A stretch of DNA of 60,229 nt from an uncultured delta proteobacterium. GTDB taxonomy: Bacteria > Desulfobacterota > Binatia > UBA9968. Numbering within the stretch: position 1 is the first letter of the stretch; each line of letters starts with the position of its first letter. A program made the position numbers and the translations under genes. Shown in pieces: positions 28,572-43,908 of the stretch. The notes under the pieces are model-generated. The model did not search any database. It was not told the DNA's origin and saw only the letters and a program-made list of their open reading frames with translations. The DNA is taken from contig CAVTUQ010000016.1 of NCBI GenBank assembly GCA_963737905.1, forward strand, positions 1 through 60,229, read 5' to 3'.

Positions 28572-31500
28572 ATGGCAAGAGTCCAGATAAAGCCCGCCGC
28601 GATACCAAGAGCCGGTTACGAGTATCAAGACCTTGCCGGCATCGAGGTGCTTATTCGTCAGTACCGAGATCCTGAGCTCTACGCGTGGGTGCAACTCGAG
28701 GCAGACGACACGGCGTACCGAGCGCTCGACGACGTCGTGGCTGCGCGAAAGGATGGCTCTTTCGAGTTCATCCAGGTCAAATTCACGGTCGACTCCAACC
28801 GCTACGAACTGGATTGGGAGTGGCTTCTCTCCAAGACCAAAAACGGCACTTCCATGCTTGAGAAGTGGGCGAAGTCACTCGCGCGCGTCGCCGCCCTAGG
28901 TCCAATTCACAGTGCAGGCCTCAAAACAAACCGCACTCCGTCCGCGAAGTTCGCCAAGTATCTAAAGGGCTCGCGGGTCGACATTGACCTCCTACCCAGG
29001 GATATTCGCGAGGTAGTTGAGGGCGCGTGCGGAGGTACCGGCGCAGCCGAGCGTTTTTTCAGTGACTTCGATTTCTTAGGAGGTCTTCCAGACCTCGACA
29101 GATACGAAAACTACTTGCGCGATCAGCTCGTGCCTACGGACACGGATTCGTTAGGCTGGCTCCTCTTCCGCGAGAGCGTTCGTCGTTGGGCGACCCGCAA
29201 AAACCAGCCTGAACCCGATGGACGTATTCTGCGGGAACATCTTGTACAGCTTATTACGAAGCGTCGCCCGCAGCCGATCCATCAGGACTTTATCGTCCCC
29301 GATGGCTACGGCCCGCCGAGTGAGTCGTTTGACAAACTCATCCGTGGGCGCATCACGAAGGATGACAATCTAATCACGATCCTTTGGGGAACGCCCGGAC
29401 GCGGCAAGAGCACTTACCTGAGCTATTTAACGCAAGAACTTCAAAAGGAAGGTGCGGCCGTCGCGCGACACCACTACTTTCTGTCGGCAGAGGACTCGAG
29501 TTCCAACCGCATCTCCTTTATTGAGATTGCAACTTCACTGATGCATCAGCTGTATGTGCGCCATCCCGAAGCCATGGCCGGCGTTGCCGAAGATGCCGAC
29601 AAGTTGCGGTCTAACCTCGCGATTGTCGCGGCCAATCTAGCCGTCAAAGGGCAGCGGCTTCACATCGTCGTTGACGGACTCGATCACGTGTGGCGCGACA
29701 CGCAGCGCGTCGACCAGCTTAATCACCTCTTCAACGAGCTGCTACCGCTGCCGCCAAATGTAAGTCTTATTGTCGGAACCCAGCGGGTCACCGACGAGCA
29801 GCTGCCCGGCAAGCTGCTGACGATTGCGAATGACGATGACTGGGTCGAAATTCCTCGCATGGACGAGGTCGCGGTCCATCGCTGGGTGGTGCAGCAAGAT
29901 AGGGCGCGTCCACTCATCCTTCGGTTTGACCCGACGCCCCAGCAGCGCGTCGAAATGATCGGCGAGATCGCGGGAGCGTTCTTTGATATCAGCCAGGGCC
30001 ACCCGCTGCATTTAATCTACGCATATGAGGCGCTCATCCGCACAGGCCGCCCAACGTCTGCAGAGGAAGTCCGATCGCTACCGCCGTGCCCCGACGGCGA
30101 TATCCGCGTCTACTATCGGGGACTCTGGGTTCGCCTCAGTGCGGATGCCAAAAACGCTCTCCACATGCTTGCCGGATCGGACTTCTTCTGGCCGAGCCTT
30201 GGCATAAGGCAGGTGCTCGGGGACTTCAGCGAGATCGACCACCTTTTGGAGCCGCTTAATGTTGGCATGGTCCCCTTCCACTCAAGCATCTTCGTATGGG
30301 TACGCGAGCGGGCGGACCATGCGGAAGCCTATCAGGCGCTCCTGCCGAAGATCATCAACTGGCTTGCGAATGATGCGCCTGAATATTGGCGGTGGGGCTG
30401 GCTCTGGCTCGCCAGGGCTCAGACCGGCGACTTCAAGGATTTACTCGCGGGCGCAACGCGGGACTGGGTTGTCGAATCCTTCACGAAGGGCTGGTCCGAT
30501 CAGCAGATCGAAAACATCCTCGCCGCCGCGGAAGCGAAAACCTTCGAGGACGGCGACTTACCGCGAACGGTATCCCTTCGCAGTCTTAAGACCCGCGTCT
30601 CAAACGCGCGCGAGTTTCAATCGAGGGATTTTGCCGCTTATCGCGCGACCGCGCTCGCGGTCTCCGATAACCGCCAACAGACTTTGAACCTTCTTGATAA
30701 CATCCACGAGTTGACCGAGAGCGAGGTGACAGAGCTAGTCCGCCGTGGTCCTAGCGAGATGTCCTCGCAGATCTTGCCTGCCTGCCGTAATGAACTGGAT
30801 CGTCGCGTCAATGCATGGATCGCGCTGCGTCACCGGCCCGAGCGAGAATTTACGACGCTTTCGGATCAGCTCCTGGCGGTCAGTGCGCTGATGGATAGAG
30901 AGACAGTGCGACGCACCTTAAACTACCTGCGCGGCTTCAGAAAACCCGAGCCCCATGTCTTGAGGCTCATTCGTTTACTAGGGGATGCGCAAAATATCCA
31001 GGGGCTCCAACTCGCCCGCAAGACGCTGACCAGCGCCAAGTGGAAGGATCAACGGCAACTAATCGACGACGCGCTTGTACGGGCGGCGAGTTTCGCAGGC
31101 GCGGACGTCCGAGAACTGGTCTCCCTCGGAAAGGAGCCTCTCTCAGCCTTTGCGGCATCCTGGTTCCTCTGGCGCGATCGCGAAGCCAAGATAGAAGGTC
31201 ATATGCCTCCAGTACCCGATGACCTCATCCGCGAGCGGTATTCGCTCGTTGAAAACGCGGATGTCACCTCGTTCTTCTACGATGCGTTTTGGATCGCGCT
31301 ATACCTAGGCCTCCGCGCGAATGGCAATGATTTCTCGATGATCTATCCGGGTCTGGGTAAGGAGAATTTGGGATGGCTACCGAAGGGCCTGGCAATCATC
31401 GAGGAGATCGCAAGGAAAATCGCAGAAGGCCGCATCACGCCCACCTTCTCCGCTGTCTATACCGAATCAACAGATATCGAGCCGGTCAAGTGGGGTCCAT

Positions 31501-32945
31501 CTCCCGAGACGGAATACAGACAATATCTGGCTTTCAGGGAGGCTCTCCAACATATCGCCGTCGATTTGCATCTCCTTGCTCCTCCCAACTCCGGTGATAC
31601 GAAGGTGCCAGCCTCGGAGCTGAGCATGGCGCGCAAATCTGCCCACTGGTCGGACGCGAATTGGGTGGCACGCAATGTGGCAGACAGGATTCCACTCTTT
31701 GATAAAGACGGTGCGGCGGCGCTTCTCACCGCGGAGGCGAAAGTACTTTTGGCGAACGTGACGGAGTTCAGCGAGCGCTCGGAACGTTGGACACAATTCG
31801 CGGACTTGGCGCATCGTTATGGCGACGCAAGAGAGACCGAGTTTCTGGCGCATGCTGCCGAATGTCTCGTCGGCTATGGCTGGCGAAAAGACCTCGGCGC
31901 GATGGATGTACTCGATGCCGTTGTTGAACTGAGCGCGAAAGACCCAGCTGTCACGCGGGCACGCATGGATACACTCGTGCCAATCGTCGAAGTAATCACC
32001 GAATTTACGGACGGCGATGAGACGAACCACGTAAGGTCTGAGCTTATCGAAGTTGTAGCGAAGGTTGCACCCGAGCGCTTGCCCTCCGTCTACGAACATC
32101 ACCTCTCGAACGATGATCATTCCTACGCCGACGAGTGCCTGGTTGAACTCGCGAAGGTGATGGATCTCGGTACGCCAGAATGTAGCGCGCTAGCGCGCAC
32201 CTTTCTTGATGAACGGACTCTGGGTGTTCTAGAAGACCGCGCGGCCAGTGAACCTGCCGCCCTAGCGCTCCTCGCCGGCCAGAATGCGTTTCTCGGCCGC
32301 ACACTGGAGACTCGCCGCGAGATCAAAGCAACCGAGGAAGAGCTTTCGGAGCGGGAGAAAGAAGCTGCCAAAATTGACCCTACCGCGTTTGACTATGACG
32401 ATTTCGCTGGCGTCGTCAAAGCGGCCGCGGCGGGCCACTACAGGAGCCGCAAAGAATTCATGGTGAAGTGGCTTCATCACTGGAAGGCTCAACGCAAGGG
32501 GACGCGAGTTCTGCGCTCGATTCTCTCCTACTTTGAGGTCGGCGAGAAAACCCACGATGCTGAGGAAGTCCTCGATGAAGCCTTCCTCGTAAGCTTCGCT
32601 ATCGAGGGGAAGGAGGCCGCGTATCCGTGGCTTGTTAAGGCGCACATTCATCGTGGCGGGTGGCAGAGCTACTGGGCATCCGAGACCGAAATAATGCAGC
32701 GGCTCAGGCTAGCCGTGGAGCACTATCCAGATCGCTGGCTAAAATACATCAAAGATACTTCGGTGCCCGCGTCCTACTACCTTCGCCGGGGCTACGGTTT
32801 CGTAATTGGTTACAAATACCTGGTGCGCTTCCTCATGCTTGTCGGGCAGGCGGAGCTTGCTGACAACGTTACCACAGCTTTCGTGGACTCATTGGTCGAG
32901 GAGGTCCGGGAACAGCCAATCCCGGAGACGCCATGGTTCCGTTAG
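28572..32945 (+). CDS. PD-(D/E)XK nuclease-STAND/NACHT NTPase-helical repeat protein (Avs/NLR-like putative anti-phage protein)
   Basis: N-terminal GYEYQD...ALDDVV...FIQVK (Cap4/Mrr-like); Walker A GTPGRGKST (29388-29414); Walker B HIVVDGLD; IVGTQ sensor; GHPL; PFHSS; long helical C-terminus. Confidence 0.88.
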   Translation: MARVQIKPAAIPRAGYEYQDLAGIEVLIRQYRDPELYAWVQLEADDTAYRALDDVVAARKDGSFEFIQVKFTVDSNRYELDWEWLLSKTKNGTSMLEKWAKSLARVAALGPIHSAGLKTNRTPSAKFAKYLKGSRVDIDLLPRDIREVVEGACGGTGAAERFFSDFDFLGGLPDLDRYENYLRDQLVPTDTDSLGWLLFRESVRRWATRKNQPEPDGRILREHLVQLITKRRPQPIHQDFIVPDGYGPPSESFDKLIRGRITKDDNLITILWGTPGRGKSTYLSYLTQELQKEGAAVARHHYFLSAEDSSSNRISFIEIATSLMHQLYVRHPEAMAGVAEDADKLRSNLAIVAANLAVKGQRLHIVVDGLDHVWRDTQRVDQLNHLFNELLPLPPNVSLIVGTQRVTDEQLPGKLLTIANDDDWVEIPRMDEVAVHRWVVQQDRARPLILRFDPTPQQRVEMIGEIAGAFFDISQGHPLHLIYAYEALIRTGRPTSAEEVRSLPPCPDGDIRVYYRGLWVRLSADAKNALHMLAGSDFFWPSLGIRQVLGDFSEIDHLLEPLNVGMVPFHSSIFVWVRERADHAEAYQALLPKIINWLANDAPEYWRWGWLWLARAQTGDFKDLLAGATRDWVVESFTKGWSDQQIENILAAAEAKTFEDGDLPRTVSLRSLKTRVSNAREFQSRDFAAYRATALAVSDNRQQTLNLLDNIHELTESEVTELVRRGPSEMSSQILPACRNELDRRVNAWIALRHRPEREFTTLSDQLLAVSALMDRETVRRTLNYLRGFRKPEPHVLRLIRLLGDAQNIQGLQLARKTLTSAKWKDQRQLIDDALVRAASFAGADVRELVSLGKEPLSAFAASWFLWRDREAKIEGHMPPVPDDLIRERYSLVENADVTSFFYDAFWIALYLGLRANGNDFSMIYPGLGKENLGWLPKGLAIIEEIARKIAEGRITPTFSAVYTESTDIEPVKWGPSPETEYRQYLAFREALQHIAVDLHLLAPPNSGDTKVPASELSMARKSAHWSDANWVARNVADRIPLFDKDGAAALLTAEAKVLLANVTEFSERSERWTQFADLAHRYGDARETEFLAHAAECLVGYGWRKDLGAMDVLDAVVELSAKDPAVTRARMDTLVPIVEVITEFTDGDETNHVRSELIEVVAKVAPERLPSVYEHHLSNDDHSYADECLVELAKVMDLGTPECSALARTFLDERTLGVLEDRAASEPAALALLAGQNAFLGRTLETRREIKATEEELSEREKEAAKIDPTAFDYDDFAGVVKAAAAGHYRSRKEFMVKWLHHWKAQRKGTRVLRSILSYFEVGEKTHDAEEVLDEAFLVSFAIEGKEAAYPWLVKAHIHRGGWQSYWASETEIMQRLRLAVEHYPDRWLKYIKDTSVPASYYLRRGYGFVIGYKYLVRFLMLVGQAELADNVTTAFVDSLVEEVREQPIPETPWFR

Positions 32946-34390
32946 TGAACTCCGCCCCCATCGCGCTTTCCTTTCTCTTCCAGCGGCTCAAGTGGCCAGT
33001 GCCGATGTCCCGTTGGCGCACGGCGAAGGAGATCCGAAACCTGCTGAATAATCCAAACACGCGATCCTCAACGTTGGACGCACTTTTGGACTATCTCGAT
33101 CAATGCAAGACTGAATCTGAAGTCTGCGAGATTCTCACAATCGTCTTCCTGACCTCCCCGGATGCCAGACCCTCGCGCACAGCGCTCGCATCGCGCATCC
33201 ATTACCCTTCCGTTCTCGCTGATATCCTCCTGGAGCAGATCTACGGACTGGGGCACGGCATCGGCGGATGGCGCTGGGCTCACTCGGGGCGGGCTCCGGC
33301 AGATTTCGCCGGTGGCAGCTACTTCGAGGAACACAAGGCAGCACATGTTCCGCCTATATTCGCGGACAATCTGAAACGGCTGGAACGCGCCAGCAGTGAC
33401 CCCTTTCTCCAGCAATGGGCCTACGAGTGGGAAACGCTTCGCGACAAGCTGGGCACACCTTACACGGGCTACCCGGATTATTTCGGTGACGTCTTGGAGG
33501 GACGCGCGGGAATCATGGGCCAATACTGGCAGCGGATGAGAGAGGTTTATCTCTCAGCATACCTGCGGACTTTGTCCTATGCCGTAAGCGAGTGGCGTAT
33601 GCCCCAGATGATGGCGGAAAACAATTGCCTCGAGATCGTTCACGGGATTGCCGGTCTTTTCGATGTCGAACCTGGTGCACGACCGGCGTGGCTCTCGGAC
33701 TTCCCTGAAAGATTCTGCGCTCCCGACGCTGACTTCACACTCCTCGTCCGCGAGCTCGTGCAGACCGCACGAGCGGAACGGATGAGGCTTGTGTCCCTCG
33801 ACACGCCAGTGGCGTCGTCAGTGCAGAAATTCGCCAATCTCACCCTCAGCACTCATCTCGTAACGCCGGATTACGAATTGCTTGACAATGCTTTCCTCTT
33901 CGAAAAAATGCCATGGCTGTCACTCGCAGATACGTTCGAGCTCACGGGCCCGCCAGCAGAGATCACGATCAAGGAAGCTAGCACAGCAGGAAAAATGGGT
34001 GACGAGGTGGCCGTCTGCAATCGTCTTTTTCCGGTACCATATGGAACCTGGCAAAGCGACTATTTCGCCATGGGCCTCAGGATCCCCGCTCCTTATACGA
34101 TTCCCGACACCGAAGTCCGCTGTTCGCACGAGAGCATCGAGTGTATTACATCCGACGGGAAGGTTGGCTCGAGAACTTTGATATGGAACGACAATTGGGT
34201 TCCGCCGCACCCAAAGGGGGGTTCAACGCGCTGCGGCACCGCGACTATGATCGATCAGGAGATGCTCGCCGAAGCTTTAGAACGACTAGGCCGCAAGCTC
34301 GCTTTCTTCATGAAGCTGCGCATTTGGGGCCGCGAGAAGGAGTATGGGGACTACTCGGAATCGAAACGCACTTTCTTTTTGCTTGATTGA
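32933..34390 (+). CDS. Hypothetical 485-aa partner of the STAND NTPase (translationally coupled or split C-terminus)
   Basis: Overlaps the upstream stop (ATG at 32933, or TAG/GTG overlap at 32943-32947); no catalytic motif recognised. Confidence 0.8.
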   Translation: MVPLVNSAPIALSFLFQRLKWPVPMSRWRTAKEIRNLLNNPNTRSSTLDALLDYLDQCKTESEVCEILTIVFLTSPDARPSRTALASRIHYPSVLADILLEQIYGLGHGIGGWRWAHSGRAPADFAGGSYFEEHKAAHVPPIFADNLKRLERASSDPFLQQWAYEWETLRDKLGTPYTGYPDYFGDVLEGRAGIMGQYWQRMREVYLSAYLRTLSYAVSEWRMPQMMAENNCLEIVHGIAGLFDVEPGARPAWLSDFPERFCAPDADFTLLVRELVQTARAERMRLVSLDTPVASSVQKFANLTLSTHLVTPDYELLDNAFLFEKMPWLSLADTFELTGPPAEITIKEASTAGKMGDEVAVCNRLFPVPYGTWQSDYFAMGLRIPAPYTIPDTEVRCSHESIECITSDGKVGSRTLIWNDNWVPPHPKGGSTRCGTATMIDQEMLAEALERLGRKLAFFMKLRIWGREKEYGDYSESKRTFFLLD

Positions 34391-34591
34391 GAGCGTCGAG
34401 AGTGGATCAGGGTCTTGAAGATCAGGTCGGGGGGCACGCATTAGCCGGCAGGTCAAGTAGGTACAGAGATTCCCACGAAGAGAATTTCTTTTCCTTTCCC
34501 GTTATTTGAACTCGTCAGCGTTTGACCGTCTCAGTCACATGCCTCTGTTTTCAATCGTTCGGTGTCGGATCTAGGGTTAGTCGTGATGCTC

Positions 34592-34811
34592 GGGCTTGAT
34601 TCTGTATTTTGATTTCTTTCCTTGTCCATTCAGGCTCGACCTCGCTATTTCCCCTTCTGTCTGCTATGAGGATTTTCAGTCCTCTGACGGCAGCGGGACT
34701 ATGTGTCACTATTGGTATCTATTCAAGTGTTTAACGGCGGTCTCAGCCGGTCTATTTTACCGATTCGAACACATAGCAACACGTAGTTCTTTCAAAGCAC
34801 ATTCAAAGCAG
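34592..34811. repeat. att-like element copy 1 (tRNA-Phe anticodon core plus arm repeats)
   Basis: Core GAGGA-TTTTCAG-TCCTC at 34668-34684; GTCACTAT 34705-34712; IHF-like ATTCAAGTGTTTA 34721-34733; terminal TTCAAAGCA doublet. Confidence 0.75.
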
Positions 34812-35042
34812 GGAGGCGATCAGTAATCCGTACTGTGCCTCTATGTGCCTTAATCGCTTTACGCCGGAATATCGACTGAAGCCGTGGATCAAGCGGACCG
34901 GTACAACAGCGGATTTTTCATCAAGCAGAGAAGGAATTGACATCTCTGCCGGTCGTGCGATACGGCTAGATCATAGAAAAGGTCGTTCTCGCGTGATCGA
35001 CCACTAGCCTCTTTCGAAACGCGGTGGGCGTCCCTACTGGCG

Positions 35043-36644
35043 ATGGAGGATGTGATGGACATCTGCACGCTCCTGTCGGCGACATCGCTGTTCTCCGCGC
35101 TCGAACCAGCGACTGTACAACGTCTTGCCGCCTGCTGCCGCGTGGAAACGTATCCAGAGGGTGCCACGCTGTTTGTGGCGGGTGACCCAGGCGATGAGAT
35201 GTTTGTCGTCGTCAGCGGGAGCGTCAAGGTACTTGTCGCGTCGGAAGATGGTGACATCACGCTGGCCACGTTCAGCCACGGCGACACGTTTGGTGAGCTG
35301 GCGCTCCTTGAAGTAAGCGGGCGACGGACGGCAACAGCCGTCGCGGTCGAGCCCACTGATCTGCTCGTCGTAGCTCGCCACGACTTCGACACTATCCTCC
35401 GTTCGTCGCCCGATTTCTTGTACAGGCAGCTCTGCGAAGTCGCGATGCGTCTAAGACAGACGAATCAACTTCTGTCTCCGCAGGCTAGTATTGACGTCTA
35501 CGATCGTCCGAGTAGAGCCCACCAGGAGGCGCTCGGACATGACGTCACTCTCGTAGGGTATGGGCGCTACGGGAGACTTCACATTGGGCCGAAATATGCC
35601 ACCAACAGCACGTTGTGGAATATGGCAGCTATTGTGGACCCTCTTCTCACGAGGCCGCAGTATCGTGTCAGCCGGTTGGGATTGACTAGGCCAGACGTAC
35701 CGATATTCGCCACGTTTGACGATTGGCGACATGAATACTTTAGCAAGCTGGACGATGCGGCGAAAGCGAAGCATGTGGTAGATATCGCCTTGCGGCCGGA
35801 TGTCGTGTACGATCAAACCGTACTATATATGCGCGCCGGCATAAAGAACGTGATCTTGCCCAAGCCAGTCACGGTAAACCACGAGCAGTTCGATCAATTG
35901 AGCGAGGAGGTTACGAAGCACGGTGTCAAGGCCGCGGTCGCCTCGCAATGGCACTATTCGGACCTGCCACGCCTCATCCGTCGCGAGATCAAGCGCCTGG
36001 CCGGACAACCCGTTGCAAGGTTGGCTGATGTCAAATTGCAGCGAGTCGAGCTGGAGTTCTCAAAAGAGAACGGAGCCGCTATCTCGGCAACTCCGCCGCT
36101 CTCGGAACTACCTCACGCCATCCAGCTGCTCGAGTCGATCGGCCTGGTCGATCTTGCCCAGCACCAACCCGAAGTAAGCGGTAACGAGGTGTCTGTCGAG
36201 GCCGTGTATAGACCGACGAACATTACGGATGGTATCCATGTTCGGGCGAGCCTGGACTGGACGCCCGATGAGTGGGTCAAAGTGCAGTATCCGCATTGGG
36301 ATGTTCAGAATCGTTCCCTGAGAGTATATCTTCATCAAGATCAGAGTGAACCATCGATGAGCGTGGACTTTTGGGTGAAGTTTGACCGAACTGGTCGATA
36401 CGCCATTCGACCTGGTAACCTGATTCTTCCTGATGATCCCAATTCCGAATGGCGCGATAGGTTGCGCATGGACTTCGTGGACGATCAGTTGCTGACTATG
36501 CTTCGGAAGATCTATGCAGCGTTTGATCAGGACTTCAGTGAATTCCAAAGCGATGAGAGGGTGATGCCTCTCGATCGCTACGCGAATGTCGGCAAGCAGC
36601 TCATGGTGATCGAGAAGATATGGCACGATACTATCAGGCAGTAG
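35043..36644 (+). CDS. Cyclic-nucleotide-binding domain fused to a Gfo/Idh/MocA-like Rossmann oxidoreductase
   Basis: CNBD: LFVAGDPGDEMFVVVSGSV...GDTFGELALL...RTATAVA. Rossmann part: VTLVGYGRYGRLH, AAIVDP and VILPKPV. Confidence 0.8.
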   Translation: MEDVMDICTLLSATSLFSALEPATVQRLAACCRVETYPEGATLFVAGDPGDEMFVVVSGSVKVLVASEDGDITLATFSHGDTFGELALLEVSGRRTATAVAVEPTDLLVVARHDFDTILRSSPDFLYRQLCEVAMRLRQTNQLLSPQASIDVYDRPSRAHQEALGHDVTLVGYGRYGRLHIGPKYATNSTLWNMAAIVDPLLTRPQYRVSRLGLTRPDVPIFATFDDWRHEYFSKLDDAAKAKHVVDIALRPDVVYDQTVLYMRAGIKNVILPKPVTVNHEQFDQLSEEVTKHGVKAAVASQWHYSDLPRLIRREIKRLAGQPVARLADVKLQRVELEFSKENGAAISATPPLSELPHAIQLLESIGLVDLAQHQPEVSGNEVSVEAVYRPTNITDGIHVRASLDWTPDEWVKVQYPHWDVQNRSLRVYLHQDQSEPSMSVDFWVKFDRTGRYAIRPGNLILPDDPNSEWRDRLRMDFVDDQLLTMLRKIYAAFDQDFSEFQSDERVMPLDRYANVGKQLMVIEKIWHDTIRQ

Positions 36645-36685
36645 GGTCAGGTCACGCTTTAGGGTCAGGTCTTGCAAGACAACAT
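36645..36685. repeat. GGGTCAGGTC direct repeat / REP-like (GGGTCAGGTCTTGCA...ACA)
   Basis: tagggtcaggtc acgctt tagggtcaggtc ttgcaagacaaca immediately after the stop codon. Confidence 0.45.
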
Positions 36686-36930
36686 CTGGGTACCGGTGCC
36701 GCGCCACTTCGCTTCGAACTGTCGCACAACTTGCCGTGTGGACGGATGATCCTACTGTGGCACTCGATTCGAGAATTCAAAGAGGATCCAGAAGTGGAAT
36801 GACGCTTAAAAACAGTCAAGCGTGTGATTTCGTTGTCCATCGTCTATCCCGCCATCACTAACGTAATTTGTGATATAGGTTTAGGGAAGATTTTCTGTTT
36901 GCGAAGCAAGGGGCATGGGGATCAGTCGTG

Positions 36931-37090
36931 GGGCTTGATTCTGGATTCTAATTTGTTTCGTTGTCCATTCAGGGTCGACCCCGCTATTTCACCTTCTGTC
37001 TGCTATGAGGATTTTCAGTCCTCTTGCCGTAGCGGGACTATGTGTCACCATCGGTCGCTATTGGTATCTATTCAAGCGTTTAACGGCGGT
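36931..37090. repeat. att-like element copy 2 (right arm truncated)
   Basis: Left flank near-identical to copy 1; core at 37007-37023; four 10-bp units (ggACTAT, gtcACCAT, gtcGCTAT, gtaTCTAT); IHF-like ATTCAAGCGTTTA; similarity ends at 37090. Confidence 0.75.
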
Positions 37091-37092
37091 GC

Positions 37093-37209
37093 GCTCATCC
37101 CACTAAGCCGGGCCGCGTAACTGTCAGTGGTAACCTCGGCGATGACATGCCAAAGGGGACGTTAGCTTCCGTACGGCGACAGGCGGGACTCAGAGGAGTA
37201 TTGCGATGA
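37093..37209 (+). pseudogene. hicA: 5'-truncated HicA-family toxin
   Basis: AHPTKPGRVTVSGNLGDDMPKGTLASVRRQAGLRGVLR* is the HicA C-terminal half; in-frame stop at 37081-37083 and no start; ATGA overlap with hicB. Confidence 0.8.
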
Positions 37210-37469
37210 GAAAGAGACAATATCTGGTTCGCGTAAACAAAGACCCGAATAGCGATTGGGGCGCTTCAGTGCCTGATCTCCCTGGTTGTGTGGCAACCGG
37301 AAAAACGATTGATATTACCCTTCGGCGAATTGAAAGAGCCATTACACTTCACCTTCACGGGCTGCGCGAAGATGGCATAAATCCACCGCTCCCACGACAC
37401 CGTTCCGTTACTCCAAGACGCACGCGCCGACAGGTGGATTTTTACGCGACTGTCGAGGTGGCTGCCTAA
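37206..37469 (+). CDS. hicB: HicB-family antitoxin
   Basis: WGASVPDLPGCVATGKT...AITLHLHGLREDG..PP. Confidence 0.93.
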   Translation: MRKRQYLVRVNKDPNSDWGASVPDLPGCVATGKTIDITLRRIERAITLHLHGLREDGINPPLPRHRSVTPRRTRRQVDFYATVEVAA

Positions 37470-37520
37470 CGAATCGCTTCAGACCGACGCTAAAAGCGCC
37501 GGCGGAGCTTTGCGTTAACC
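37464..37520 (+). mobile_element. Integron attC-like site (57 bp)
   Basis: R'' GCCTAAC containing the hicB stop, 5-nt spacer, L'' GCTTCAGA, central CGACGCT-AAA-AGCGCCG, L' GCGGAGC, 5-nt spacer, R' GTTAACC. Confidence 0.65.
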
Positions 37521-37596
37521 GCAGCCCCGGGTAGAATCGGCACGGTGGCGGTGACTCAATTTATCAAAGCCTCGGGACTAAGAAAGAGAAACGGGC

Positions 37597-37995
37597 ATGA
37601 AGAAGAGCGGGTCGCAGAAAAGCAAGTCTCCTTCTCAGCTGATAGATGCGAGAATCAAGGAGCTAGGCGACTGGCGGGGCAAGATGCTCAGCCGGCTCCG
37701 TACCTTAGTCAAGGAAGCCGATCCCGAAGTCGTTGAGGAGTGGAAGTGGAGAGGGGTTCCGGTGTGGTCGCACGACGGATTGATCTGCACAGGCGAGACT
37801 TACAAGAACGTTGTGAAGATGACCTTCGCCAAAGGGGCGGCTCTCAAGGATTCTTCAGGCCTCTTCAACTCCAGTCTTGACGGGAACACAAGGCGTGCCA
37901 TTGACTTCCACGAGGGCGAGAAGATACACGAGGAGGCGTTGAAGACTCTCGTTCGCGCCGCCGTGGCCCTGAACAAGTCGACAGCCAAAAGCTAA
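37597..37995 (+). CDS. DUF1801-domain protein
   Basis: LGDWRGKML...EEWKWRGVPVWSHDG...YKNVVKMTFAKGA...FNSSLDGNTRRAIDF. Confidence 0.9.
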   Translation: MKKSGSQKSKSPSQLIDARIKELGDWRGKMLSRLRTLVKEADPEVVEEWKWRGVPVWSHDGLICTGETYKNVVKMTFAKGAALKDSSGLFNSSLDGNTRRAIDFHEGEKIHEEALKTLVRAAVALNKSTAKS

Positions 37996-38060
37996 TCCAC
38001 GGAAGGGCCACCAGCGTTAACGCGCGAGGCATCCTTCACGGGTCGCCTGCGTCGCGCACT

Positions 38061-38232
38061 CAATCGAATGACAAAGAGCAGAGGATTTTCAGTCCTCTGC
38101 TCTACCAGGACTATGTTCACTATCGGTCGCTATTGGTATCTATTCAAGCGTTTAACCGCGGTCTCAGCCGGTCGATTTCACCGATTCGAACACATAGTGA
38201 CATATAGTTCTTTCAAAGCACTTTCAAAGCAG
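38061..38232. repeat. att-like element copy 3 (perfect 11-7-11 palindromic core; 27-nt tRNA-Phe fragment)
   Basis: AGAGCAGAGGA-TTTTCAG-TCCTCTGCTCT (38075-38103); the reverse complement of 38081-38107 is TGGTAGAGCAGAGGACTGAAAATCCTC (tRNA-Phe D-arm/anticodon arm); right arm shared with copy 1. Confidence 0.8.
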
Positions 38233-38305
38233 TGAGCTGTCTCGAAGCCAGTTAGGTTTTTTCACAATAGGAGGTGATTGTTCTGCCCACGTTCGGGCAC
38301 GGAGT

Positions 38306-38617
38306 CTATGTGACTATCGCTACGAAACTGGTCGATCCTCTATAGATCAGCGTTTCGTCCCTATGTGCGCTTGGGCAGCGTGCGTAAGTCCATTGGTTTG
38401 CGGCCTTCCACCAAAAGTGAGGAAGATGACCGCCTTTCAGCGTGAATTGCACGTAGTAGTAACCAGTTTCATTGCTCGGCGGGTTATATGAGACCCTCTC
38501 TCCCGGTGCCAGATCGCCCGTCCCCTTCCCCCAATCTACGGTGACTTCTTGGGCTCCGTCCTTGGAGTCGTAGCACCACCAGGTCACAGCCATATCTGAT
38601 TCGTTAATGATCTGCAT
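38306..38617 (-). CDS. Small hypothetical beta-rich protein, paralog 1
   Basis: RBS GGGAGG; MQIINESD..VTWWCY...GDLA.G.R.SY.PP.N.TG.YYV.FT.KGG shared with the neighbouring gene. Confidence 0.75.
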   Translation of the reverse strand: MQIINESDMAVTWWCYDSKDGAQEVTVDWGKGTGDLAPGERVSYNPPSNETGYYYVQFTLKGGHLPHFWWKAANQWTYARCPSAHRDETLIYRGSTSFVAIVT

Positions 38618-38700
38618 TTCTTACCTCCCACGTCTGATTGAAAGAACCGGAGCGCTGCCTTGTACCGAGCATCAGCCTGGTTGGTAGCCGCCAGACAATT

Positions 38701-39033
38701 CTAGCCATCCTTTGTCCTATCACGCCCGTGCTGGTCTACTAATTCGTATCTGGACGATCCTCTGAAGGTTACCGTTTGGTCCCGACCTAGCTTCGGGCTG
38801 TGTTTCAAAGTGGAAAAGTTTCCGGGCCTCCACCATGCGTAGGTCTGACTGCCGCCTTTGTTCGTGAACACCACGTAGTACAAACCCGTGGGGTTGTTCG
38901 GCGGGTCATATGAGGCCCTCCCTCCCTGTGCCAGATCCCCCCTCCCCCCTGGCGAGGTGTGCTCTTTGCCCCAGTCATCAGAGTTGTAGCACCACCAGGT
39001 CACATCCCGATCTGATTCGTTAACGATCTGCAT
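38701..39033 (-). CDS. Small hypothetical beta-rich protein, paralog 2
   Basis: Same scaffold; 43-nt 5' segment (39010-39052) identical to 38594-38636 except for one base. Confidence 0.75.
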   Translation of the reverse strand: MQIVNESDRDVTWWCYNSDDWGKEHTSPGGRGDLAQGGRASYDPPNNPTGLYYVVFTNKGGSQTYAWWRPGNFSTLKHSPKLGRDQTVTFRGSSRYELVDQHGRDRTKDG

Positions 39034-39347
39034 TTCTTACCTCCCACGTCTGGTTGAGCGCCAAATTGTAATGATAGGAATTTGCTTTTTGCATCTCGAC
39101 ACGAATAACTGAACCTGGCTCCATCAGCCGCTTGCGAGTCAGCTGTCATTCATACATTTTCCTCCTATTGATATAGCCATGACCTTTTCCTCCCTTTTCT
39201 TACTTACAGTGAACTGATCTAAGATGATGTGGCGAAGCAGTAGCGCGAGTCTACCAAGTGCCCTCGGGTAATACTATCGGGCATAGACTGATTTTAAGAT
39301 TCGGTTTTCCTTAGGGGACCTACTTGACAGAGGACGACGGGCACCCG

Positions 39348-39389
39348 CAATCGAATGACTGGAGCAGAGGACTTCTAATTCTCTGTTCC
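39348..39389. repeat. Diverged fourth att-like core
   Basis: CAATCGAATGAC..GAGCAGAGGA shared with the left flank of copy 3; 7-nt spacer CTTCTAA; imperfect inverted arm TTCTCTGTTCC. Confidence 0.55.
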
Positions 39390-39422
39390 GCTCTAACCGC
39401 AAGATAAAGCAAATATTTTTCT

Positions 39423-39530
39423 CTGCTTTGCAGTTGCTTTGAAAGAGAGAAGCTGTAACAAAGATCGAATCAGGTAACGATTCAGACACGAATCCGCTTA
39501 AATTCTCGCGGATCACCAATGGTGTGGCGC
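39423..39530 (-). repeat. Diverged inverted copy of the att-like right arm
   Basis: CTGCTTTGCAGTTGCTTTGAAAGA (39423-39446) is the reverse complement of the TTCAAAGCA doublet; TCGAATC, CCGC..TTAAA and ACCAAT blocks are collinear. Confidence 0.55.
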
Positions 39531-39612
39531 AGTATTTCGAGCTTCAATTACCTTCAATGTCAGGTCGCTCGATGGCGCTCACCACTTTTTTTGCACGAAA
39601 GGAAATGACACT

Positions 39613-40056
39613 ATGAAGGCTCAACCCTTTGTTGTAACCCCCAAGGACTACGATCCCGCGTTGAACGTACTCGGTATCAAGGTGACCGTGCTGGCTTCAA
39701 ACACAGCGACACAAGCCTACGAAATCACGCGGCAGCAGGGCGAGAAGGGAATGGGTCCGCCGCCGCATAGCCACAACTGGGATGAGTCCTTCTATGTCGT
39801 CGCGGGCGAAGTCGAGTTCACCTGCTCTGGCAATACCGTAATATGTTCGCCCGGTACTCTTGTGCACGTGCCCGCCGGCACGGTGCATAGCTTTCGCTAT
39901 CTTGCCGATGGCTGTGACGTGCTCGAAATTACCGGTCAGGGCGGGATTGCCACACAGATGTTCACAGCCGTCAGCAGGGAGATTCCTCCCGGTCCCCCTG
40001 AAGTTCCTAAACTGCTAGAGGTGTTAAAGCAAAACGGCGTGACTGTGCCAGCTTGA
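39613..40056 (+). CDS. Cupin-domain protein
   Basis: GPPPHSHNWDESFYVVAGEV...VPAGTVH. Confidence 0.92.
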   Translation: MKAQPFVVTPKDYDPALNVLGIKVTVLASNTATQAYEITRQQGEKGMGPPPHSHNWDESFYVVAGEVEFTCSGNTVICSPGTLVHVPAGTVHSFRYLADGCDVLEITGQGGIATQMFTAVSREIPPGPPEVPKLLEVLKQNGVTVPA

Positions 40057-40097
40057 CGGACACACCGGCATCACTTGGGTTGAAGCCTTGAGCGCGC

Positions 40098-40754
40098 TCA
40101 GGTCGGTCGATTGGCTACCAAGGCCTGGTTGTATGTCTCACGCCGCGTGATCCGCTCCAGATACTTTACGAGCGCATCCGGAAGCTCTATCCCTCGGCGC
40201 ATAGCCGACACCAGGCATGTGGTGAGAAGGATGTCCGCGCCCGTAAAGGACTCGCCAAGGATGAACGGCCCGCGGGCTGCCAACGTCTTACTGACAACCT
40301 GCGCCTGTTTTTCTAATTGCTTCCTCGCCGCCAGCACGGCATTCGGCGCTTCTCCGTAGATTGCTTTGAGATCGGTGTGCTTACGAAGAACATAGAGCGC
40401 GTTAGCATCCAACTCCATCATCAGAAAAAAACACCATTGGTAATAGTTGGCCCGGGTTTTCGTATCGGAAGGCGGTAACAAGCCACGTTGGGCACCGTAA
40501 GTCTCCCCTATGTATGTGACGATGGCGGCGCTTTCCGTAAGCGTAAATTCTCCGTCCTGCAGTACTGGAATCTTTTGACTCGGGTTAATACGGGTGAATT
40601 CGTCGGTTTGTGTCTCGCCGGTTCGCGACCCGATCGGCCGCCTTTCGTATTCGAGACCCACCTCTTGCAGAATCCAATGCGCCCGCATCGTTCTCGGTGT
40701 GCCAGCTCCCCAAAGAATTCGACGCGCTGCCGCGGTCCCTTCGAGCATAATCAC
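40098..40754 (-). CDS. Glutathione S-transferase family protein
   Basis: RTMRAHW, NPSQKIPVL, LTESAAI and FTGADI. Confidence 0.92.
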   Translation of the reverse strand: MIMLEGTAAARRILWGAGTPRTMRAHWILQEVGLEYERRPIGSRTGETQTDEFTRINPSQKIPVLQDGEFTLTESAAIVTYIGETYGAQRGLLPPSDTKTRANYYQWCFFLMMELDANALYVLRKHTDLKAIYGEAPNAVLAARKQLEKQAQVVSKTLAARGPFILGESFTGADILLTTCLVSAMRRGIELPDALVKYLERITRRETYNQALVANRPT

Positions 40755-40920
40755 CTCCGGTCATTCAAGCGAACGAATCATAGCGTCTGACCGCCTACGC
40801 TCTCGCTCAGTTTACCGATTAAGCCGGATAGTAGCATATAGTTGAAGATCCCACGGTTTCTCGACTCCCCGCTTTCTTCACTTCGGTAATGGTGCATGGT
40901 GCCGTAGTGCAAAATACGGA

Positions 40921-42213
40921 CTAAGGCGTGGTGGTCGCCAACGGCGAAGGTGCCAGCGGTGATACCACGTAGATGTGATCGAGCACTTTCACCCAGAGGG
41001 TATTGGCGGTCTGCTGGTCGTCCAGCGATACTGCTAGATTGGTCCACACGATGAGCGTCATCTGGTTGGTTGGATCGTAGCTGATTTTCGAGTTGTAGCC
41101 GGGGGTCTCGCCGCCGTGAAAATAAATCGTGTTCGTTCCCCAGCTAACTTGGGCGATGCCGTACCCGTACTTTTGGCCCTCGGGCTTGCTCGGGTCCTCG
41201 GGCTTGAGGCTGTCGAGCCAGCGGCGCTGGTAGGCGGGGTCGAGCACGCGGCCCGCAACCAGTGCCTTGATCCAGGTGGCGAGATCGTTTGCGGTGGAAA
41301 TGACACCCCCGGCGGCCGCGGCATTGGAATGGTTCACTCCCGTATAGTCCTTCGGCAGGAGGGTGCCAGCTCGTGCCGCAGCCTGAACCTCGGGCGAGTA
41401 AGGCGGTTCGCCCACCAACGCGACTGAGGAGCTGCCGTACAGATAGCCGTGCGAGTACGGTTCGGGGATTGTGTTCACGGTGCTGGCGGGGAGCACGGTG
41501 TGCTGCATACCGAGCGGCCCGAACAACCGGTCGTGCATTACTTGCGCCAGCGGCTTGCCGTCGACCTTTTCAGCGACGAGACCGAGAAGCGCATAGTTGG
41601 TGTTGTTGTACTCGTACTTTGTTCCCGGCGGGAAATTGGGTGGGTGCGCGAATGCAATTGCCAGTAAGTCGGCGGGGGTCCAAACCTTAGCTGGGTCTGT
41701 GTCTATGGTCGCCGAGATTATGGGGTCGTTGGTGTAATTGTAGAGTCCGGTGCGCATTTCCAGCAGCTGGGCGATGGTGATGTTGTCGCCGTTGGGCACG
41801 CCGGGGACGTACTTCGACACCGGATCGCTGAGACGCAGCTTGCCTTCCTGAGCAAGTTGGAGGATCACCGCGGCCGTCATCGTCTTGGTGTTCGAGGCGA
41901 TCCGGAAGTGGGTGTCGGCGCCGGGCCGGTTCCGAGTGCCCAACTGCGTGGTGCCGGAGGCAGCCGTGAAGTCGCCCTGGGGTGCGCGCAGGAGAACCAC
42001 GGCGCCGGGGATGAGGAGCTCCTTAATGGTCGTGTCCACCAGGGACTGCAGTGCTGCCTGATCGATGGGCTTGAGAGCCGATGCAGTCTGCGTTGATGGA
42101 GTCGTCATAATCGAGCACCCTGCGATCAGGAGGGCAGCGCCAAGCAGGAAGTTCGCGATCTGGCGGTGCCCGCATCGTCGCCGCGATGGCGACTGTCCGA
42201 TGAATGTGCGCAC
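40921..42213 (-). CDS. Serine hydrolase (beta-lactamase/D-Ala-D-Ala peptidase family), probable lipoprotein
   Basis: FRIASNTK (SxxK), YNNTNY (YxN) and HGG; lipobox LIAGC; GTG at 42213 after GGAGG. Confidence 0.9.
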   Translation of the reverse strand: MRTFIGQSPSRRRCGHRQIANFLLGAALLIAGCSIMTTPSTQTASALKPIDQAALQSLVDTTIKELLIPGAVVLLRAPQGDFTAASGTTQLGTRNRPGADTHFRIASNTKTMTAAVILQLAQEGKLRLSDPVSKYVPGVPNGDNITIAQLLEMRTGLYNYTNDPIISATIDTDPAKVWTPADLLAIAFAHPPNFPPGTKYEYNNTNYALLGLVAEKVDGKPLAQVMHDRLFGPLGMQHTVLPASTVNTIPEPYSHGYLYGSSSVALVGEPPYSPEVQAAARAGTLLPKDYTGVNHSNAAAAGGVISTANDLATWIKALVAGRVLDPAYQRRWLDSLKPEDPSKPEGQKYGYGIAQVSWGTNTIYFHGGETPGYNSKISYDPTNQMTLIVWTNLAVSLDDQQTANTLWVKVLDHIYVVSPLAPSPLATTTP

Positions 42214-42806
42214 TTCGTTCCTCCGGTCTAGCCCAGCTTCGAAATCTAAGCAGTTAGTGGAAAGGGCGAACGAGCCCTCTGATGGCCGTTTTGCGGAGCG
42301 TATCCGACAAGCTGATCTTGGGTCAACCAGCAAGCGAAGCCCGTTCCAATCGTTCCAAAAGTCTGCCCTGAGTCTGTCGAAGGGTTCAACCGCTTCGCTC
42401 AGTTCAAATCGTTTACAGAAACAAAGACCGAACGTCGAAATTCGGGAATTCTCGAACTGGTGGCTGCCGTTACCTACGCTAGATCCTCGAGGGCCGTGCA
42501 CCGCGAAGCCAAGCAGGCAGGTGAAACGTATGTGCTTGTCCATTCAGGCTTCCCGAATGATACGCTCCTAAAGTACAGATTCATCTCGACCCCGTTATTT
42601 TCCCAACGACGATCAGCTTTTTTTGTCGGGATAGTTATTTTCAAGACTGTTCACTATTGGACAGCAATCCGGCCCGAGTGTTGTTAGTTAATTAACTTAA
42701 TTCCTGAAAGGAAGACGGATCTACGGCATTGCATTAATGGCGTGCAACAAGAGGCAGAAGAAATCACAAGCCCCGAATTGTGGGGTACAACAAGGAGGTT
42801 CCCGAC

Positions 42807-43908
42807 ATGAAGATTGTGAATATTGTTTGTAAAGCGGCAGTCACCATAACGCTACTATTAACGTTGAGCGGCAGTAGCTGGGGCCAAACCAGTCTGGACA
42901 ACGCGCCAGTCGGGTCACAGACCGCTGACGAGGCGGCCCGGGCCCGAGGCGGCCCTGTTCAACCCGTATGCCGCCGCGATACCACACCACACAAAGTGAC
43001 GTTCGTGGAGGTCGAACCGGGCGTCAAACTGGAGGTGCTGGACTGGGGCGGTTCAGGAGAGGTGATGGTGTTGTTGACCGGAGCGGGCGACAACGCGCAC
43101 GTATTCGATTATTTTGCATTTCAGTTCACCGATTTCTTTCACGTCATCGGGATCACCCGCCGTGGATGGCTGCCATCGAGCCAGCCCAAAAACGGCTATG
43201 ATGTCGAGACAAGGGCGGCTGACGATATCGCGGTCCTCGATGCCTTAGGCATACGCAAGGCCGTCTTTGTGGGACATTCCATCGCCGGTGCGGAATTGAG
43301 CAAGATCGGAGCAAAATATCCAAGTTATGTAGATAAATTGGTCTATCTGGATGCTTCTGACCTGTCGGAGAGGAACACGTTCCCCGATATACCTGGTCCG
43401 TTTCGATCTTTTTACTGACGCGGACGGTAGATCTTTATTTGCTTTACAAGCAGCTTATGCACGGTTGCTAGCAGTCCGCGAACCAATCCCGGCGATCTGC
43501 CTGTCCTTTGCGTTTGACACAAATGGAATGGTTACAGGTTCCTCGACACCGGAATCCATCATCACTCAACTTCTGAGGGTGTGGGTATTCCGGCAAATCC
43601 ACCAACGAATTGGGCGGATATCAAGGTGCCGCGGCTCGGCATTTTCGCTCCATCCACAATTGAGGGTAGGCTACCCTGGTACTGGTACTTGAGTCCTGCC
43701 GACCAAGCAGAATTTGATCAACGGTTTCCGCGCCTTCTTCCCTGGTATAGAGATGCAATCGATAAATTTGGAGAGACACATCCGAGAACCCCACCCACCC
43801 GTAGTATTATTACTGCCCGGCGCTCCACACTATGTTTACATAAACAACGAAACGAAGGTCGTGCTGCAGATGCGGAATTTCTTAGGGTTGCCTGTCGGGG
43901 GAAATTGA
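42807..43908 (+). CDS. Secreted alpha/beta hydrolase (frameshifts near 43400, 43580 and 43790)
   Basis: LEVLDWGG, ITRRG and GHSIAG; later frames continue to IKVPRL and GAPHYVYI. Confidence 0.75.

Follow-up and report, generated by a model that had tools for sequence, protein, structure and literature searches.

Half attachment sites of tRNA-Phe-targeting islands in an array of probable island remnants from an uncultured Binatia bacterium

The 60,229-nt stretch of DNA analyzed here (the window) is contig C16 (CAVTUQ010000016.1) of an uncultured bacterium from the Binatia, whose genome (G000) is a metagenome-assembled genome (MAG) of 6.7 Mb in 46 contigs and 87% complete. An array of three direct repeats, each built around the same short tRNA-derived core, was found at positions 34592-38236. 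Each repeat is best read as a half attachment (att) site of integrative islands that target the anticodon loop of tRNA-Phe. The array itself probably consists of stacked, decayed island remnants without an integrase, formed by secondary-site recombination in a region of accessory genes, which is close to the stacked minimal islands that the initial annotation of this DNA had offered as an alternative. An integron reading is not supported, and the finding is an ordinary sort of thing in an uncharacterised soil-bacterial family. The analysis defines the att-site architecture (core, two arms, candidate arm-type and accessory sites) of this island family, which is abundant in soil metagenomes, and ties it to an integrase clade at tRNA-Phe, Leu, Arg, Gly, Cys and Met genes. 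In the coordinates cited, L numbers denote loci, G numbers genomes and C numbers contigs.

Three sites around one core

The 17-mer GAGGATTTTCAGTCCTC has three exact matches in the window, all on the plus strand (34668, 37007 and 38081), with spacings of 2339 and 1074 nt between the cores, exactly as first described. When up to three mismatches were allowed, shuffled sequences averaged 0.22 matches, and in a set of 100 shuffles a single one reached three. Read on the opposite strand, the 17-mer corresponds exactly to positions 27-43 of this genome's tRNA-Phe, which bears out its earlier identification with the anticodon stem-loop. The sole tRNA-Phe(GAA) gene of the genome is located at C3:25438-25511 on the minus strand. 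No tRNA was detected in the window by ARAGORN, tRNA-Phe is absent from contig C16, and the 12 PF00589 matches of the genome all lie on other contigs, in agreement with the claim that the array contains neither integrase nor tRNA. The sites and their left partners are the following.

34592..34667, plus strand: 'w' module, left partner of copy 1; 89% identical to 36931-37006, not tRNA-derived
34668..34684, plus strand: core 1, composed of GAGGA, TTTTCAG (overlap) and TCCTC; reverse complement of the tRNA-Phe anticodon stem-loop
34685..34815, plus strand: integrase-distal (P-type) arm of copy 1 (nhmmer E 1e-45; alignment), containing CTATnnGTnn units in phase, of which one is absent, together with the block TATCTATTCAAGTGTTTAAC, inverted units and, at about 34791-34810, the doublet TTCAAAGCAcaTTCAAAGCA
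34816..34987, plus strand: repeated non-coding module adjoining the arm; 90-97% identical in L085, L198, L056, L072 and L091
36931..37006, plus strand: 'w' module, left partner of copy 2, by sequence likeness
37007..37023, plus strand: core 2, exact 17-mer
37024..37095, plus strand: P-type arm of copy 2, truncated; matches profile positions 1-88 only
38054..38080, plus strand: left-hand portion of a 'family 2' hairpin module, which partners copy 3 on the left; common to 39341-39359, C1:62932-62992 and G460:C8
38081..38097, plus strand: core 3, exact 17-mer
38098..38236, plus strand: P-type arm of copy 3, full length (nhmmer E 1e-49), doublet within 38209-38235
39341..39446, plus strand: complete 'family 2' module (repeat search), with hairpin 39362-39388 (loop CTTCTAA), inverted doublet 39420-39446 and a 12-13-nt sense-strand match to tRNA-Phe positions 21-33

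The flanks are mixed and matched around the core, as had been proposed. A repeat search showed that copies 1 and 2 have a common left flank (132 nt including the core, 88% identity), that copies 1 and 3 have a common right flank (118 nt, 89% identity), and that a block of 46 nt is common to all three. The right flank had been described as shared by all three copies; this holds for copies 1 and 3, whereas copy 2 keeps only the first ~84-90 nt and has lost the inverted unit and the doublet. The absence of one 10-nt unit from copy 1 was seen again in the alignment. The core of copy 3 does lie inside an 11-7-11 palindrome (38075-38103), but the reported 27-nt tRNA-Phe match is an exact match of 26 nt to the genome's own gene and reaches 27 nt in three relatives. 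A fourth related hairpin with a different loop was found at 39362-39388, followed by an inverted TTCAAAGCA-type doublet at 39420-39446. In all three copies the partner left of the loop differs from tRNA-Phe and is one of two other short hairpins of the form GAGGA-N7-TCCTC. What the window copies contain is the core and the P arm, three times in direct order; both the P' arm and a part of the tRNA are missing.

Arm architecture and the cognate integrase

A profile search with the core and right flank recovered seven copies from the genome, three on C16 and the others at C1:58385, C1:65625, C1:84480 and C28:221439; the same profile also matched a distal arm fragment at C1:115354-115419. In the four copies outside the window the whole tRNA-Phe 3' half stands directly left of core and arm, with 90-98% identity to the real gene. 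Among the 60 relatives searched, counting the two unpublished genomes G006 and G012 (tRNA match alone), the arm is present in G001 and G004 and absent from the other 58, of which 50 show just a 22-27-nt tRNA-Phe match and 8 nothing. None of 400 further genomes of the phylum gave an arm, with at most two candidates scored per genome. An exact 22-mer of the arm was found in two genome_contigs records and in at least 120 contigs from metagenomes. Several relatives with fragmented assemblies have their tRNA-Phe match at a contig end or no more than 2 kb away from it (G007:C41:1-22, G036:C125:1-22, G008:C1:718 and G041:C7:1616), a position that would be expected were assemblies to break on repeats or islands at this tRNA gene. 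Since assemblies break at the arm, well-defined att sites help to locate islands in fragmented MAGs, and they provide raw material for integrase tools.

The arm was aligned from 64 of 71 reference copies, leaving out L054, L056, L068, L122 and L129 (no core), L057 (arm cut) and L093 (a near copy of L091). The consensus starts with CCGACAC-GAGGA-TTTTCAG-TCCTC-TTGCCGTAGCGAGA and proceeds through CTATGTGTCA, CTATCGGTCG, CTATTGGTAT, CTATTCAAGC and GTTTAAC to a 15-nt segment with discrete alleles, followed by ATTTTACCGATTCGAACACATAGTGnCATATAGTTC and TGGCAAAGTTGTGGCAAAGT. The half-sites CGRCAC-GAGGA and TCCTC-KTGCCG mirror each other. Within the ~150 nt of the P arm, CTATnnGTnn units are repeated four times in phase and in direct orientation; a ATTCAAGCGTTTAAC block that hardly varies, a pair of inverted units and a CAAAG doublet are present as well. 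For the metagenomes, 120 loci were listed (the true number is at least 120), and removal of 7 duplicates left 113 non-redundant copies. Among these listed copies the doublet consists of GCAAAGT twice in 64 and of TTCAAAGC twice in 24; seven copies have a mixed doublet, ten a single repeat and two none, and six contigs are too short, so that two CAAAG repeats are present in 95 of 107 scorable copies.

CAAAG repeats were found on the P' arm too (L066, L197, L083, L124 and L182). Since they are present on both arms, they are likely candidates for integrase arm-type sites. The initial annotation had assigned this role to the GTCACTAT-type units, which presumably resemble lambda arm sites; the units exist, but they and the 10-bp-phased CTAT units occur on the P arm only, and the CAAAG doublets are better candidates. 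Because of this restriction to the P arm, the phased CTAT units are likely candidate sites for an excisionase-like or bending accessory protein. Small helix-turn-helix genes are located directly upstream of the integrase in L182. The sequence ATTCAAGCGTTTA we take to resemble the consensus of integration host factor (IHF).

Integrase genes are rare next to the arm, with none among 64 right neighbours and one, in L066, among 53 left neighbours. Relatives of the L066 integrase were found at 15 loci of genome_contigs, 11 of which have a tRNA gene within 1 kb (Phe, Leu at six loci, Arg, Cys/Gly, Met and Gly). The tyrosine integrase next to tRNA-Phe that the initial annotation had proposed to look for is seen in L182, where the gene, frameshifted in that assembly, abuts an intact tRNA-Phe and is accompanied by the P' CAAAG repeats. 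In a sister lineage targeting tRNA-Leu (L184, a Nitrospira MAG) the integrase stands directly beside an intact tRNA-Leu(UAA), while 6.3 kb off there is an orphan 3' fragment of tRNA-Leu whose end falls in the anticodon loop; the island, with the integrase within, extends between the intact tRNA and this displaced fragment. In continuation of the orphan fragment, an arm bearing CTAT units and the doublet GGGCAAAGCAcGGGCAAAGCA matches the arm profile (nhmmer E 1.6e-4) and has the same layout as in the window.

The two halves of the site are joined in other loci. The complete element site is seen in G462:C200 and L066, where an integrase or its remnant is followed by a P' arm with a CAAAG doublet, a conserved spacer of ~60 nt, the 3' half of tRNA-Phe, the core and finally the arm of ~150 nt. 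In L197, as in L066, the integrase comes first, and P' arm, tRNA 3' half, core and P arm follow in turn. In L066 the P' doublet overlaps the end of the integrase gene. The P' spacer is also recognisable left of the copies C1a, C1c, C28, L100 and L111. Because of this layout of integrase, P' arm and tRNA half in L066, G462:C200 and L184, we assign the right flank, by comparison of loci, as the integrase-distal (P-type) arm of an attP.

The island integrase shows only the Phage_integrase catalytic domain in Pfam, and its N-terminal 175 aa have no Pfam match. Against the sequences of the PDB, the L184 integrase gave a Xer-like catalytic match only, and none for the N-terminal domain. A broken integrase of the L066/L184 clade is present in G000 at C22:97060-97828, next to the tRNA-Ser(CGA) gene of C22:96824-96915, and marks an island of this integrase family that has decayed at a different tRNA.

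A 270-aa integrase at C1:58830-59639 was considered as the cognate enzyme and rejected. It is Xer/IntI-like without the extra N-terminal length and scores 151 bits against TIGR02249 (cut-off 265), and its paralogues at C25:342660, C22:21344 and C19:194276 have no arm nearby. Fragments of an IS91-type Zn-finger protein and a Y2 transposase follow it (C1:58830-60590, L013:13830-15590), directly right of the arm copy C1b, and this integrase belongs to a separate IS91-type element.

The attP of phage lambda has a core (C-O-C') between two arms with arm-type integrase (Int) sites on both, the sites of excisionase (Xis) and IHF lying on the P arm, and lambda-type integration needs both arms. The islands resemble it in the asymmetric arms, the CAAAG repeat on both of them, the phased direct repeats and IHF-like block on the P arm only, and the 7-bp overlap. 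They differ in that their protein-binding sites are predictions from sequence, in the arm repeats themselves, though GTCACTAT-like units are present, and in the island integrase, whose N-terminus of 175 aa is unassigned in Pfam.

Exchange at the core and the origin of the array

Pairs of closely related loci place the exchange at the core. In L115 and L123 the 625 nt of left flank leading through the core agree at 99.5%; the two loci differ from the first base after TCCTC and are unrelated past the arm. L100 and L102 display the same pattern, with identical left flank and core and divergence from the first base after TCCTC. The pairs, the layout of the island loci and the w junction described next support the earlier proposal of phage-type att sites, with the 7-nt loop behaving as the exchange region of a tyrosine integrase. 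The 'w' module recurs at C1:118216-118291 (minus strand), followed by GAGGA-TTTCAAA-TCCTC and an unrelated right flank; its occurrence with its own loop and another right flank places the joint between w and the arm, as judged by alignment, inside the 7-nt loop. Family-2 hairpins are found at 39341-39446, C1:62960, C1:63916, C1:115551 (minus strand) and in G460:C8. The w hairpin matches tRNA-Phe positions 36-49 at 13 of 14 nt, and the family-2 hairpins match positions 21-33 over 11-13 nt. Apart from these short tRNA-Phe matches, neither module could be assigned to a tRNA. The w and family-2 hairpins may be read as secondary attachment sites. As a separate observation, C1:62333-64017 (L013:17333-19017) holds a GrpB gene and a 244-aa open reading frame (ORF) on the same strand, each with a family-2 hairpin 85-110 nt downstream; the hairpins are 956 nt apart, in a short cassette-like run 3 kb from the IS91-type element.

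On the plus strand of the window, a full attP would consist of an integrase gene, a P' arm whose CAAAG repeats overlap or follow the end of that gene, the tRNA-Phe 3' half, the core and the ~150-nt P arm. The core is composed of the half-site CCGACAC-GAGGA, the 7-nt overlap TTTTCAG and the half-site TCCTC-TTGCCG, and a heterobivalent (lambda-type) tyrosine integrase would exchange strands at both edges of TTTTCAG. Because their left partners are non-tRNA hairpins imitating tRNA-Phe half-sites, the window copies may be products of integrase-mediated recombination at secondary hairpin sites, followed by duplication and decay. At most, the array might still be movable by an integrase from another island.

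Several observations weigh against this origin. All window copies are of one junction type (left partner, core and P arm), whereas a simple island would have a pair of attL and attR, and no tRNA-Phe lies within 21 kb of the array on C16. In G000, a MAG that is 87% complete, the only integrase of this clade that was found is the broken one on C22. Remnants of an integrase on the P' side were seen in 5 of 124 arm loci (L066, L197, L083, L167 and, on the opposite strand, L051). A whole tRNA-Phe version, with orphan fragment, P arm, integrase and intact tRNA-Phe, was not found on any one contig; in G460 the integrase with tRNA-Phe is on one contig and the sole P arm on another. Moreover, the tRNA likeness ends sharply 7 nt left of GAGGA in 76 of 89 scorable copies among the metagenome matches listed. 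Such an edge is unexpected from random decay and suggests that the full core is kept by selection or another mechanism.

The extent of the tRNA part was measured in the 113 listed copies. Left of GAGGA, 12 copies match the tRNA over 29-31 nt, 3 over 14-28 nt, 65 over 3-13 nt and 13 over 0-2 nt; a core is missing from 7, and for 13 the contig is too short. Among the 76 copies of the short class, positions -7 to -1 agree with the tRNA at 64-94%, and positions beyond them on the left at 13-40%. The conserved unit ends at the outer edge of the left half-site. We rejected the idea that the left flanks are uniformly diverged tRNA halves, as only ~9 of the 76 have a recognisable remnant.

Literature searches, which could not be made by name because the element has none, did not recover it. 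It is close to several known systems. The Islander paper (PMC4383910), in which such attP sites and tandems of islands are frequent, gives 2083 islands with anticodon-centred attP, 125 tandems of at least two and 4 tandems of at least three. Such tRNA islands (Islander class A in the Williams sublocation scheme) share the tyrosine integrase, the crossover in the 7-nt anticodon loop between symmetric stem halves, the tRNA 3' part, the displaced fragment and the tandems. They differ from the window copies, which lack tRNA fragment and integrase and are joined to non-tRNA hairpins, and from most metagenome copies, which keep just 7 nt of tRNA past the stem. A review of integrative and mobilizable elements (IMEs; PMC5704250) defines cis-mobilizable elements (CIMEs), integrase-less elements keeping their att sites, and describes tandem accretion. 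CIMEs known from Streptococcus ICESt1/3 and the IME literature are likewise att-bounded DNA in direct order without integration or transfer genes, and presumably arise by decay and by newcomers integrating into resident att sites, but they have attL and attR at the target gene, whereas the window has three equal half-type sites and no target gene on the contig. In Dehalococcoides, according to PMC3146451, more than 12 ssrA repeats separate stacked strain-specific islands, some or many of them without an integration module, in a region of high plasticity. These arrays, too, place repeats of a target gene end between stacked islands, but the account given there involves a serine recombinase, the tmRNA gene and 20-bp repeats, whereas here a 150-nt arm comes with each repeat.

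Cargo genes and alternative explanations

The genes between and beside the sites are listed below.

35043..36644, plus strand: cargo gene of 533 aa with a cyclic nucleotide monophosphate (cNMP)-binding and a GFO/IDH/MocA-type Rossmann domain (Pfam)
37096..37209, plus strand: hicA remnant, last 37 codons, fused directly to the truncated arm (translation)
37206..37469, plus strand: hicB-like antitoxin gene (Pfam HicB_lk_antitox, E 1.5e-10)
37597..37995, plus strand: DUF1801 gene (Pfam)
38306..39033, minus strand: two paralogous small genes of 103 and 110 aa, no known family; 90% identical to C1:115953-116795, also in L060 and L107

The initial annotation had counted one to three accessory genes in each interval. 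Cargo is indeed present, but interval 2 is no clean cassette: the arm of copy 2 ends at ~37095 and runs straight into the truncated hicA. An intact hicAB pair exists in G001:C598, with a 65-aa HicA (Pfam HicA_toxin, E 7e-22) encoded upstream of hicB, and the DUF1801 homologue of G001 is on a contig apart from hicB. In interval 1, the block 34986-36651 with the cNMP gene is 98.6% identical in G460:C8 and ~99% identical in contigs from four soil runs of four studies; the cNMP gene has therefore moved recently. The mobile block leaves out the arm, and all matches to it end at 36651, 7 nt past the stop codon and not at a core. The order in G460:C8 is arm with adjoining module (90%), a 295-nt extra piece, the cNMP gene (98.6%) and a family-2 hairpin. 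On the left, G460:C8 has a flank of another kind, and almost nothing else in these 9.7 kb finds a match in G000. Synteny of 31000-43000 was not found in five relatives, where only single genes and repeats match. Two observations concern the edges of the block. An 18-nt tandem duplication at 36634-36669 (TCAGGCAGTAGGGTCAGG / TCACGCTTTAGGGTCAGG) has its midpoint at 36651/36652, the exact end of the shared cNMP block. A non-coding repeat of ~95 nt at 34892-34987 also occurs at C13:92664, C25:10972, C40:16514, C40:17970 and on C2, with no att site there.

These genes bear on the best-surviving alternative, an active integron-like cassette platform, in which an integrase acting in trans would cut out units made up of a core, a P arm and cargo and insert them again at any core-like hairpin; the array would then serve as a device for gene capture based on phage-type att sites. 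The exchange of flanks exactly at the core, the short core spacing that recurs in L083 (1.36 kb), the two-half-site core kept with a sharp outer edge even without the tRNA part, the high conservation of the arm in at least 120 contigs, and the combination of this arm, module and cNMP gene behind left flanks that differ among all three of the window, G460 and L085 would all fit such a platform. However, an integrase of the right type was not found in the genome, genes flanking the arm in 82 other loci lie in either orientation (26 on the plus and 38 on the minus strand), copy 2 is truncated into a broken hicA, the recently shared block has no arm and ends away from the core, and the window copies lack the P' arm that lambda-type integration needs. 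We regard the platform as unlikely. Equally doubtful is the related idea that the integrase-less core and P arm form a working recombination module, freed from any need to restore a tRNA and still endowed with a complete two-half-site core, which would recombine with any GAGGA-N7-TCCTC hairpin or with other copies by means of an integrase from a resident tRNA-Phe island, and would shuffle cassettes in soil bacteria. The orphan sites and their sharp conservation edge raise the question of whether such integrase-less att sites are still recombination-competent and shuffle accessory genes in trans.

Circles of 2339 or 1074 bp, which the initial annotation had proposed to look for, left no junctions in the Logan contigs of four soil runs, contigs that give partial cover. 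Joints of 37041/37043 to 38174/38202 were seen there with short sides of 23 and 30 nt and 90% likeness, and may be arms of other organisms.

The claim of an integron-like cassette array is not supported, given the broken unit, the mixed gene orientation and the shared block without arm or core end. Integrons and CALINs (clusters of attC sites lacking an integron integrase) do share with the array gene-sized units between palindromic recombination sites and no integrase in view; the array differs in its tRNA-derived sites, long one-sided arm, mixed orientation, broken unit and lack of IntI. No IntI is encoded on the contig, which has no PF00589 match, the cassettes are not all intact, and the attC boxes (R''/L'' and L'/R', 57-141 nt) are absent by inspection of site anatomy, no attC covariance model having been used.

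A second alternative holds that the unit is a non-autonomous transposable repeat, of the type of miniature inverted-repeat transposable elements (MITEs) or of the HUH hairpin-end type, derived once from an att site, now spread by a transposase with affinity for the subterminal hairpin, and having its left terminus 7-8 nt outside the hairpin foot. The sharp boundary at -7, the high copy number with heterogeneous neighbours, the integrase and IS91-type transposase fragments directly right of copy C1b and an IS110-type transposase adjoining L077 speak for it. It is nevertheless very unlikely, given that a transposase of a shared family was found in 0 of 64 right and 0 of 53 left neighbours, that the right end is not sharp, with subfamilies having further modules in common past the doublet, and that the repeat search revealed no terminal inverted repeat pairing the unit ends. 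Moreover, 12 of the 113 listed metagenome copies and the four genome copies retain the whole tRNA 3' half and P' arm, like an attP.

Finally, a structured small RNA or promoter/leader module with a tRNA-like hairpin, for which the strong conservation of several arm blocks and the discrete alleles of the variable segment (each able to form a 3-4-bp hairpin, by our own reading of the alignment) could be cited, is extremely improbable, since Rfam gave no match on 33500-40500 at E up to 1, RNAalifold on the 64 aligned copies returned only the anticodon hairpin and a 4-bp stem with 0 of 10 compensatory pairs, the promoter and terminator scan was not above shuffles (4 promoters against 3.5 expected, none in the arm, the only match in a site being the copy 3 palindrome), and downstream genes are on either strand at variable distance.

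Further features were observed around the array and the tRNA gene. Just left of the array, 28572-34390 encodes a 1457-aa NACHT/AAA nucleoside triphosphatase with a weak Cap4-nuclease-like N-terminus (E 1e-3), followed by an overlapping 485-aa ORF without family, a defence-like pair. At C3:23603-23737 (L018:8603-8737) there is a member of a dispersed repeat family of ~60-130 nt, with ~40 BLAST matches on many contigs, unrelated to att sites. The ~105-aa paralogues at 38306-39033 (minus strand) share the pattern MQIxNESD...WWCY... without a Pfam match, and relatives of them are encoded at L016:10953-11795 and beside arm copies in L060 and L107 (two metagenome contigs).

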